DNA from: an uncultured Gammaproteobacteria bacterium
GTDB lineage: Bacteria > Pseudomonadota > Gammaproteobacteria > UBA9214
NCBI GenBank assembly: GCA_963773065.1
Contig: CAVYZN010000032.1
Coordinates: 224,001 to 288,000 of the forward strand
DNA: 64,000 bases
Direction: 5' to 3'
Below the pieces are notes generated by a model. The model did not search any database and was not told where the DNA came from. It saw only the letters and a program-made list of their open reading frames with translations. Position 1 is the stretch's first letter. Every line of letters starts with the position of its first letter. Positions 24,204 to 25,568 of the stretch are shown one piece after another. Position numbers and translations under genes: made by a program.

Positions 24204-24243
24204 TTTTTTTTTTTTTTTTTTTTTTTTTTTTTTTTTTTTTTTT
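24204..24243 (+). repeat. 40-nt poly-T tract
   Basis: Uninterrupted T run directly left of the IS end. Confidence 0.9.
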
Positions 24244-24249
24244 ATTTTT

Positions 24250-25537
24250 GGTTTTTTTGTTTTTTGAGTGTGTTATTGTGTTATTGTGTGTTGAGTTTGT
24301 AGAAGTTGAGTTTGTTGTTGATTAGGTTTATTATTTATGTATGTGTTGTATTGATGTATTGTGTGTTTTGTGTTTGGTGTATTGGTATATTTTGTTTATT
24401 GTTTTTAGGATTTTATTGGTTTGATGTGTTGTGTTTAAGTTATGATGTTTTAGATATGTTTGTGTATTAGTTTGGTATTTTTTTTATGTGTTTGATTTTG
24501 TAGTGTTGATATTGTATATTATTGTTAGAGTATGTTGTTGATTATGTTTATTGTTTGTGATAGAGTATTGTGTATTGTTTATGTTATATTTGTTTGGTGT
24601 TTTGTTTTGTGTTGAGTTTGTTGAGTATGTTGTTGATTTTTGTGTGGTGTTGTGTTGAGAGTTTTGTATTGTGTATTATTTTTTAGTGTATTTTTTGAGG
24701 TTGGTGTGTTTTTTTGTTAGATGTGTGTGTTTGTTTAGGTTTTTGTAGTTGTGTGTGATTATATGTTTTTTGTTGAAGTTGATTTGGTTAGGAAGATTTT
24801 GTTGTATTTTTTGATGAAGGTTGTTGATATGTTGATGTTTATTGAGTTGATGGTATTTATGTTGGTATTATGTGTTTGTAGATTTTTGTTGAGTTGTTGT
24901 ATGTTTGGTTTTATGTTTTTTGTTGATGTATAGTATGTGTGTTGTTTGTTGTTGTTGTTTAGGTTGATATATTTGTGGTTGTGTGTTTGTGAGTTTTTGT
25001 TGATGTTTAGGTGTGTGATTTTGTAGAAGTTGTTTTTGTTTAGTGTGAGATTGATATATCGTTGTAATTGTTGTTATTTGATGTTAGTTTTCGTTGTTGA
25101 GATGTGTTATTGTTGTTAATGGTATTTCGTGTGTTTATATTAGTATTAGTGTTTTATAGAGTAGTGTGTAGTTTGAGAGTTTTTTGTTTTAGTTTGTTTT
25201 GATTTGGTGTATTGCGTTATTAGGTATTTTTATGTGTGTTATGTGTATTTTTAGGTAGTATTTGTGTTGGTAGATATTGAGTTGTTGATAACGTTTGTTT
25301 ATTGTATCGTGTATTGGATGGATGTTAGTCTCATTAGTTACATCGAATTGGTTGTTAGTAGTGAAGTTGATGTTTATGTTTAGAGTTTTTGTTGTCGCGT
25401 CTAAGTCAACGTATGTTACATGTTACGTCTCGGTAATGCTTAGGGTTGTTTCAAAAAGTTTCTCGTTCATCGTGATCTTATCGATTATCAGTAGGTGCGT
25501 TTAGAATACGTCTAGCCACTCAGATTTCAAAAGAGTC
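24250..25537 (-). mobile_element. ISL3-family insertion sequence, hypermutated (about 1288 bp)
   Basis: Minus-strand end gactcttttgaaatctgagtgg (GGCTCT-type) and converted partner ggtttttttgttttttgagtg at 24250; flanks taatttct (25538-25545) and ttattttt (24242-24249) fit an 8-bp TSD. Confidence 0.85.
24280..25470 (-). pseudogene. ISL3-family transposase, destroyed by G->A change on the coding strand
   Basis: Allowing A=A/G, the minus strand reads MNEKLFEAAL, GSRF, HPVHDT, LEVRV.RVK.PDG, ESWHRV, RYVDLAL, IDE.SR.RGH.Y, SIDMS.AFIK, FDK.HVI, AKRKARG, GKLDF, matching ISL3 transposases recalled from memory. Confidence 0.85.
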
Positions 25538-25540
25538 TAA

Positions 25541-25568
25541 TTTCTCTGCGTTCTTTGCGTCTTTGCGG
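25541..25568 (-). repeat. right 28-bp inverted repeat of the cassette (family A)
   Basis: tttctctgcgttctttgcgtctttgcgg; abuts the second bioF-tail copy directly. Confidence 0.93.

Follow-up and report, generated by a model that had tools for sequence, protein, structure and literature searches.

The apparent C-to-T conversion of 2.8 kb of mobile DNA downstream of bioF is most probably a technical corruption of a real insertion, consisting of an IS701 and an ISL3 element, and not the outcome of mutagenesis inside the cell. The window, that is, the whole 64,000-nucleotide stretch of DNA that was analyzed, corresponds to positions 224001-288000 of contig C32 of assembly G000, which comprises 3.84 Mb in 33 contigs. 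On its forward strand, C is essentially missing from about position 22706 to about position 25300 and comes back gradually up to position 25545, and the GC skew equals +1.0 between approximately 22800 and 25000. A scan of the whole 3.84-Mb assembly returned this as the sole long C-free tract of its kind. When the two elements are compared with intact siblings from the same assembly, 800 substitutions run toward T and one runs away from it. One process that pushes all bases to T and also drops bases is the simplest description of these differences, and its signature is technical.

The presence of an ISL3 element in the tract was established by reduced-alphabet BLAST, in which C and T were merged both in the query and in the whole assembly, each strand being treated separately. 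Positions 24245-25554 aligned in this way to four other loci of the assembly, at 89-90% identity over ~1340 columns (E = 0), namely, C22:61043-62383, C22:60002-58662, C14:39408-40753 and C27:110162-111342, the last of which is truncated. The first-pass annotation of this DNA had proposed such a search, and the significant ISL3 alignments that it expected were indeed obtained. The four siblings are intact or near-intact, and the length of the element is 1320 bp. The ORF of a C22 sibling (L001 272-1501, minus strand) encodes a protein of 409 aa. This protein reaches 298 bits on NF033550 (ISL3 family transposase), where the cut-off is 180, and matches PF01610 at 5e-60, along with the HTH and Zn-ribbon ISL3 domains (PF13542, PF14690). 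With the reduced alphabet, the window copy could be aligned base for base with this transposase gene; as written, its frame is not open.

The corrupted copy spans positions 24250-25537 on the minus strand, 1288 bp as compared with the 1320 bp of its siblings. Its ends at 24250 and 25537 align with the sibling inverted repeats, GGCTCTTTTGAATTCCGAGTGG and GCCTCTTTTGAAATCTGAGTGG, the siblings terminating in GGCTCTTTTGAATTCCGAGTGG and in the reverse complement of GCCTCTTTTGAAATCTGAGTGG. In the window, the outer end reads gactcttttgaaatctgagtgg (25516-25537) and the inner end, starting at 24250, reads ggtttttttgttttttgagtg, just as the first-pass annotation had reported. Its proposal that a complete ISL3 element lies in the converted DNA, with both inverted repeats and an 8-bp duplication, is borne out, and so is the start codon that it placed at ATG 25470 on the minus strand. 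The transposase motifs that it read through the conversion occur in the sibling protein in the same order, namely, LFETAL, HPVHDT, ESWHRV, RYVDLAL, IDE, SIDMSPAFIK, FDKFH, AKRKARG and GKLDF, the first of them having been given as LFEAAL, one residue off, and all others correctly. The flanks, TTATTTTT at 24242-24249 and TAATTTCT at 25538-25545, the latter within the right arm of a REP-like repeat, had been taken for an 8-bp duplication, and they do form a single one once C>T and the tract's own change of A to T before A are allowed for. Clean 8-bp duplications flank siblings in C22 (TATTTCTT) and in C14 (ACAATTTT). Thus, a DDE transposase (by way of the sibling ORF), terminal inverted repeats and an 8-bp target-site duplication were all found for this element. 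The two C22 siblings, at 58662-60002 and 61043-62383, form an inverted pair about 1 kb apart, with 0 mismatches and 1 gap column over 1320 bases, which could be a composite-transposon-like arrangement.

The same C-free tract holds an IS701 copy, which is absent from the first-pass annotation. Reduced-alphabet BLAST aligned the region from 22647/22691 to 24203, at about 91% identity, to C16:2530-4170 and C17:165161-166756, and in part to C11. The siblings in C16 and C17 are intact and that in C11 is partial; the element measures 1582 bp, and the ORF of a sibling reaches 483 bits on NF049999 (IS701 family transposase). The corrupted IS701 copy of the window occupies positions 22706-24204 on the forward strand, at 1499 bp versus the 1582 bp of its siblings, and has CTGAAGTTTAGA and TCTAAACTTCAG as its ends. 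Between the two elements lies a run of 37 T (24205-24241), for which no plausible ancestral spacer was found, and which is probably junk and no true spacer. This run is similar to homopolymer junk seen elsewhere in the assembly. No ORF of at least 80 aa is left between positions 22716 and 25527.

The boundaries of the tract follow those of the two elements. The first converted base is base 1 of IS701 (22706), and the Cs of the flank at 22699-22700 are unchanged. At the other side, C retention climbs from 0 to 100% across the final ~250 bp of ISL3, past which the flank is clean. The converted tract is therefore multi-copy DNA, and no more than that.

The whole structure lies between the two copies of a 276-bp direct repeat. 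The left copy (22354-22629, forward strand) is made up of the last 265 bp of bioF, whose ORF (21440-22618) is intact, and 11 further bases. The right copy (25565-25840, forward strand) is an orphan second bioF 3' end with an open frame, after which bioH follows. The two copies are identical at 261 of 276 positions, with 15 substitutions and no gaps; both frames are open, and they differ by 8 amino acids. Four genomes of the same genus have one bioF end, then bioH. This bracket, for which read error alone does not account, may result from one contig joining the alleles of two strains, or from a true rearrangement or duplication. Inside the bracket, the left arm of a REP-like repeat (22647-22679, forward strand), TTCAC-CGCAAAGACGCAAAGGACGCAGAGAAAG, is unconverted, and the right arm (25540-25567, minus strand) is its reverse complement at 27 of 28 bases and is joined directly to mid-bioF sequence, where GTGA is usual. 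At up to 4 mismatches, the assembly contains 35 copies of the REP-like repeat, CGCAAAGACGCAAAGGACGCAGAGAAA (16 on the forward and 19 on the reverse strand, both local arms counted), several of which are found behind genes as inverted pairs, i.e. hairpins. One such hairpin holds both insertion sequences in its loop, and its right arm is overlapped by the duplication of ISL3. The resulting order is bioF, REP left arm, a 26-base loop, IS701, the 37 T, ISL3 with its duplication, REP right arm, the bioF copy and bioH.

An intact sibling in the same assembly had been predicted to yield a per-base mutation spectrum, and the intact siblings of both elements made this feasible. Each window copy was aligned to one intact sibling using a scoring tolerant of C>T, and the fate of every ancestral base was counted. 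Among 831 ancestral Cs, 681 now read T, 27 read A and 3 read G, 74 were deleted and 46 kept, such that at least 92% of the non-deleted Cs were converted. The 926 ancestral Gs gave 83 T, 9 A and 2 C, with 15 deleted and 817 kept. Ancestral A (n = 562) changed to T at 36 positions and to G or C at none, with 23 deleted and 503 kept. Ancestral T (n = 633) changed to A once and never to G or C, with 14 deleted and 618 kept. In total, IS701 and ISL3 have 126 deletions and 12 insertions relative to their siblings. The first-pass annotation had treated the change as C>T only (G>A on the minus strand), and in doing so it overlooked the G>T and A>T classes.

These changes depend on context in different ways. 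The C>T change has no 5' or 3' context preference, all C contexts behaving alike. G>T is nearly confined to the second G of GG (in the ISL3 part, 58 of 110 GgN as against 0 of 141 CgN), A>T occurs solely in NaA, i.e. when the next base is A, and C>A occurs in TcG, mostly within the IS701 part. Deletions are concentrated in pyrimidine runs of the IS701 part, and purines were hit too (19/819 and 19/669), at a rate of 2.3-2.8% that is 10-30 times the one observed between siblings. The two elements also differ in their error profiles, IS701 versus ISL3 having 23 versus 4 C>A, 60 versus 14 deleted Cs, and 11 versus 72 G>T. Deep in the tract 12 Cs are left, and 10 of these are in CpG (Fisher p = 0.0015). 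The siblings, when compared with one another, are 98.6-99.9% identical, with gaps limited to 1-3 columns in either element. All are copies of recent origin, and at these elements the assembly generally has a good consensus. Even after C and T are merged, the copies in the window reach just ~90% identity to the siblings, i.e. they carry a further difference of about 10%.

What the spectrum implies follows from the bases that did and did not change. Since T is untouched (1/633), no time in the evolutionary sense has elapsed since the change. Neutral drift after an old conversion was considered and rejected, because drift would have altered T as well, and T is intact at 618 of 619 non-deleted sites. 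Generic read noise is discarded by the same token, as it would not leave T alone. A cytosine deaminase, in turn, is unable to produce G>T or A>T. Its changes would be confined to C>T, whereas the 681 C>T are accompanied here by G>T (83), A>T (36), C>A (27) and 126 deletions. For its part, simple bisulfite-type conversion was rejected as a sufficient cause given that the G>T and A>T classes are present. The argument of the first-pass annotation that the change came after the insertion, and in place, survives in one respect, namely, that the change was applied to the ISL3 copy at this locus and was not imported with the element. Its other component, mutagenesis in the cell that could be dated, finds no support in a collapse to T accompanied by deletions, with T itself spared. 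If the conversion is technical and non-heritable, it says nothing about the time at which the insertion sequences arrived.

The quality of the assembly in which the tract is found was evaluated next to these results. Assembly G000 has a completeness of 90.9 and a contamination of 6.3%, and it looks like a metagenome bin. As a frameshift test, 61 ORFs of at least 200 aa were taken from syntenic contigs of two genomes of the same genus, and a match was defined as at least 60% identity in G000. Matches were found for 51 of the 61 ORFs, and 20 of these 51 (~40%) were split over more than one frame, a rough figure, as some genes of G000 were hit from both relatives and some of the ORFs may be shadow ORFs. 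To the right of the tract, bioH (25902-26703) and bioC (26594-27569) are each split over two frames when compared with four genomes of the same genus, the frame changing near 26146-26183 and 27222. Such frameshifts are a usual mark of long-read data, according to two reports (10.1101/2021.08.23.457338; PMC9262707).

At least seven further junk tracts were found in the same assembly, and they cannot be natural in a bacterium with 60% G+C. These consist of a G tract of some 300 bases interspersed with T (C5:107126-107450), poly-G followed by poly-A (C13:10926-11200), a C-free segment leading into 600 bases of purines (C15:11376-12100), two purine-only tracts (C19:73801-74375 and C28:78176-78500), a poly-A of ~75 bases (C30, near 21905-21980) and 175 A (C33:95251-95425). 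Low-complexity hits in C8, C9 and C16 were discarded as junk candidates, since they are ordinary coding sequence or tandem repeats. Apart from homopolymer self-matches, no direct repeats were detected flanking the other junk tracts. When intact siblings of the junk tracts in C5, C15, C19 and C28 were sought by reduced-alphabet search, C28 alone had one. There, a repeat copy within C28:77600-78400, when compared with its sibling at C32:87100-88000 (minus strand), has lost 30 C and 27 T, but only 4 A and 4 G, and this pyrimidine-losing copy runs on into purine-only junk. Thus, G000 contains at least two cases of base-specific repeat decay, and the bases involved are not the same, which argues for a pathology at the level of reads over a single chemistry. 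Within the C-free tract, sequence quality is like that of raw reads and well under that found elsewhere in G000, which also contains further artefacts of this class.

The spectrum, the boundaries of the tract, the local quality and the state of the assembly are all observed, and from them we infer a mechanism that combines bridging reads with failed polishing. Its starting point would be some genome of the sample in which IS701 and ISL3 had really inserted between bioF and bioH, in the REP hairpin. For the 2.8-kb multi-copy stretch, the assembly would then rely on a single long read, or a handful at most, left uncorrected and called in a pathological way. T would have been written there for nearly all Cs, for roughly half of the Gs that follow a G and for many As that precede an A, with other bases dropped. 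Ordinary reads would have corrected the unique flanks, and the interior of the repeat would have stayed uncorrected, presumably because the intact siblings are a better match for good reads of IS copies. That the tract comprises repeated DNA only is expected if polishing reached the flanks but not the inside of the repeat. If a process in the cell were responsible, the same coincidence of tract and repeat would require the sensing of repeats, and the siblings should then have been hit, which they were not. This mechanism has some precedent in published sources, according to which polishing leaves errors in repeats (PMC8812927), nanopore sequencing yields strand-specific, base-substituting miscalls of telomere repeats, including C>T and A>T (PMC9414165), and long-read assemblies contain low-complexity junk reads and sequence glitches (PMC6966772). 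Our literature search found no account of a near-complete C>T miscall, or of the loss of one base, across 2.8 kb of complex, non-tandem sequence. Moreover, a technical explanation covers only loosely the CpG bias of the Cs that were kept deep in the tract.

This last feature is the pattern expected of bisulfite or of methyl-sensitive chemistry, and it brings in damage to the template as an alternative. Here, a single library molecule would have been deaminated on one strand (C to U) before or during library preparation, whether by chemical or enzymatic action or as environmental DNA that was single-stranded or damaged, and would then have been sequenced natively, the uracil-containing k-mers giving rise to neighboring GG>GT and AA>TA miscalls and to deletions; none of this would be heritable. 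A near-complete C>T change without 5'-context preference, the enrichment at CpG of the kept Cs, as for methyl-protected cytosines, and secondary errors that are bound to context instead of random all fit such an event. However, the boundaries match the IS pair and not the end of a molecule or a random position, the other junk tracts lose other bases, which points to a signal pathology at the read level and not to chemistry, and no data point to a conversion step in the library. We therefore regard template damage as improbable. No more probable, in our view, is heritable hypermutation in vivo, by which a ssDNA cytosine deaminase, an SsdA-like toxin or similar, would have acted on one exposed strand after the insertion, replication then fixing the result, and the differences other than C>T would be assembly noise on an unusually T-rich template. 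It is favored by a C>T change that is strand-coordinated and independent of context over 2.8 kb, by the logic of the duplication, which places the change on the ISL3 copy in place, and by context-independent bacterial ssDNA cytosine deaminase toxins that can mutagenize survivors, as described in PMC12494967. Nevertheless, 119 G>T plus A>T changes against 1 away from T are impossible for a deaminase or for generic noise, restriction to exactly the repeated DNA is left without a mechanism, and purines are deleted at the elevated rate given above with the sibling copies untouched. A conversion of 92% or more of the non-deleted Cs is also far above what is known of mutation clusters formed in vivo.

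Nor was the converted sequence encountered elsewhere. BLAST of the tract against 53 other genomes of the family returned two short weak hits only, both to the less-converted end of ISL3. Exact-match searches found neither a 60-base converted piece of ISL3 in public metagenome contigs nor, in public contigs from metagenomes or genomes, the junction between the ISL3 end and the REP arm, for which one ambiguous base was allowed, both searches possibly excluding the records of the window's own genome. The absence from the 53 genomes and from public contigs speaks against a heritable change. The boldest version of that idea, namely, that the tract is real DNA in which one strand of IS701-ISL3 was almost wholly deaminated in vivo and then fixed, for instance as ssDNA during transformation or repair, or under attack by a context-independent ssDNA deaminase toxin, seems to us more doubtful still; it would leave G>T, A>T and the deletions to be explained as misreadings of an extremely T-rich template. 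Finally, silencing of duplicated DNA by a bacterial process akin to repeat-induced point mutation (RIP) would explain both the limitation of the tract to multi-copy DNA and the dominance of C>T, but it deserves hardly any credence. In fungi, RIP typically strikes every copy of a repeat, with a preference for CpA, and the resulting C>T and G>A changes are partial and mixed. Here, conversion is near-total, on one strand and without preference for any context, all C contexts being alike, while three other IS701 and at least four other ISL3 matches are intact, with transposase genes that are open in the copies checked.

The biology that is left under technical corruption is ordinary, namely, a REP element that lies downstream of bioF and carries two common insertion sequences. 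The value of the case lies in quality control, as a species-representative genome carries an untrustworthy stretch of 2.8 kb plus at least seven shorter ones. With junk and frameshifts of this sort in an assembly, scans of base composition will yield 'hypermutation' signals that are technical. The comparison used herein can be reused as a test, in which a suspect copy is aligned to its intact siblings in a reduced alphabet and examined for changes at bases other than C and for any excess of errors at T and the purines over the rest of the assembly; this can separate artefact from deamination in other windows. Were the tract real after all, it would be a remarkable instance of strand-wide cytosine deamination limited to bacterial mobile DNA, in effect kataegis or RIP in a bacterium, acting on such DNA only.

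With respect to known systems, the elements themselves conform to the ISL3 family. The siblings are ~1.3 kb long, encode one DDE transposase with PF01610, PF13542 and PF14690, have terminal inverted repeats of ~22 bp that start with GG, and generate AT-rich target duplications of 8 bp; the window copy retains the extent, both ends and the duplication. It departs from the family in that, as written, it has no open frame, and in that ~35% of its bases differ from those of the siblings, nearly all of them toward T. Bisulfite or enzymatic C-to-U conversion is resembled by the near-complete, context-independent C>T change on one strand and by the CpG enrichment of the surviving Cs, but not by the G>T, the A>T and the many deletions, nor by flanks that are unconverted on the same molecule, and there is no sign of such a library. 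Clusters produced by SsdA, BaDTF2 and APOBEC-type enzymes share the strand coordination of C>T and, for SsdA, the lack of a strong context dependence (PMC12494967). These enzymes, however, act on C only, and here a tenth of the changes come from G or A, all ending in T, at a density of change near 100%. There is also a likeness to long-read miscalls and junk as documented in PMC9414165 and PMC6966772, which have in common with our tract the substitution of a class of bases on one strand in register with the true sequence, errors that depend on context, low-complexity junk alongside, and persistence where polishing cannot place reads. The cases described there concern tandem repeats or unstructured junk, whereas here 2.8 kb of complex sequence have undergone the near-complete loss of one base.
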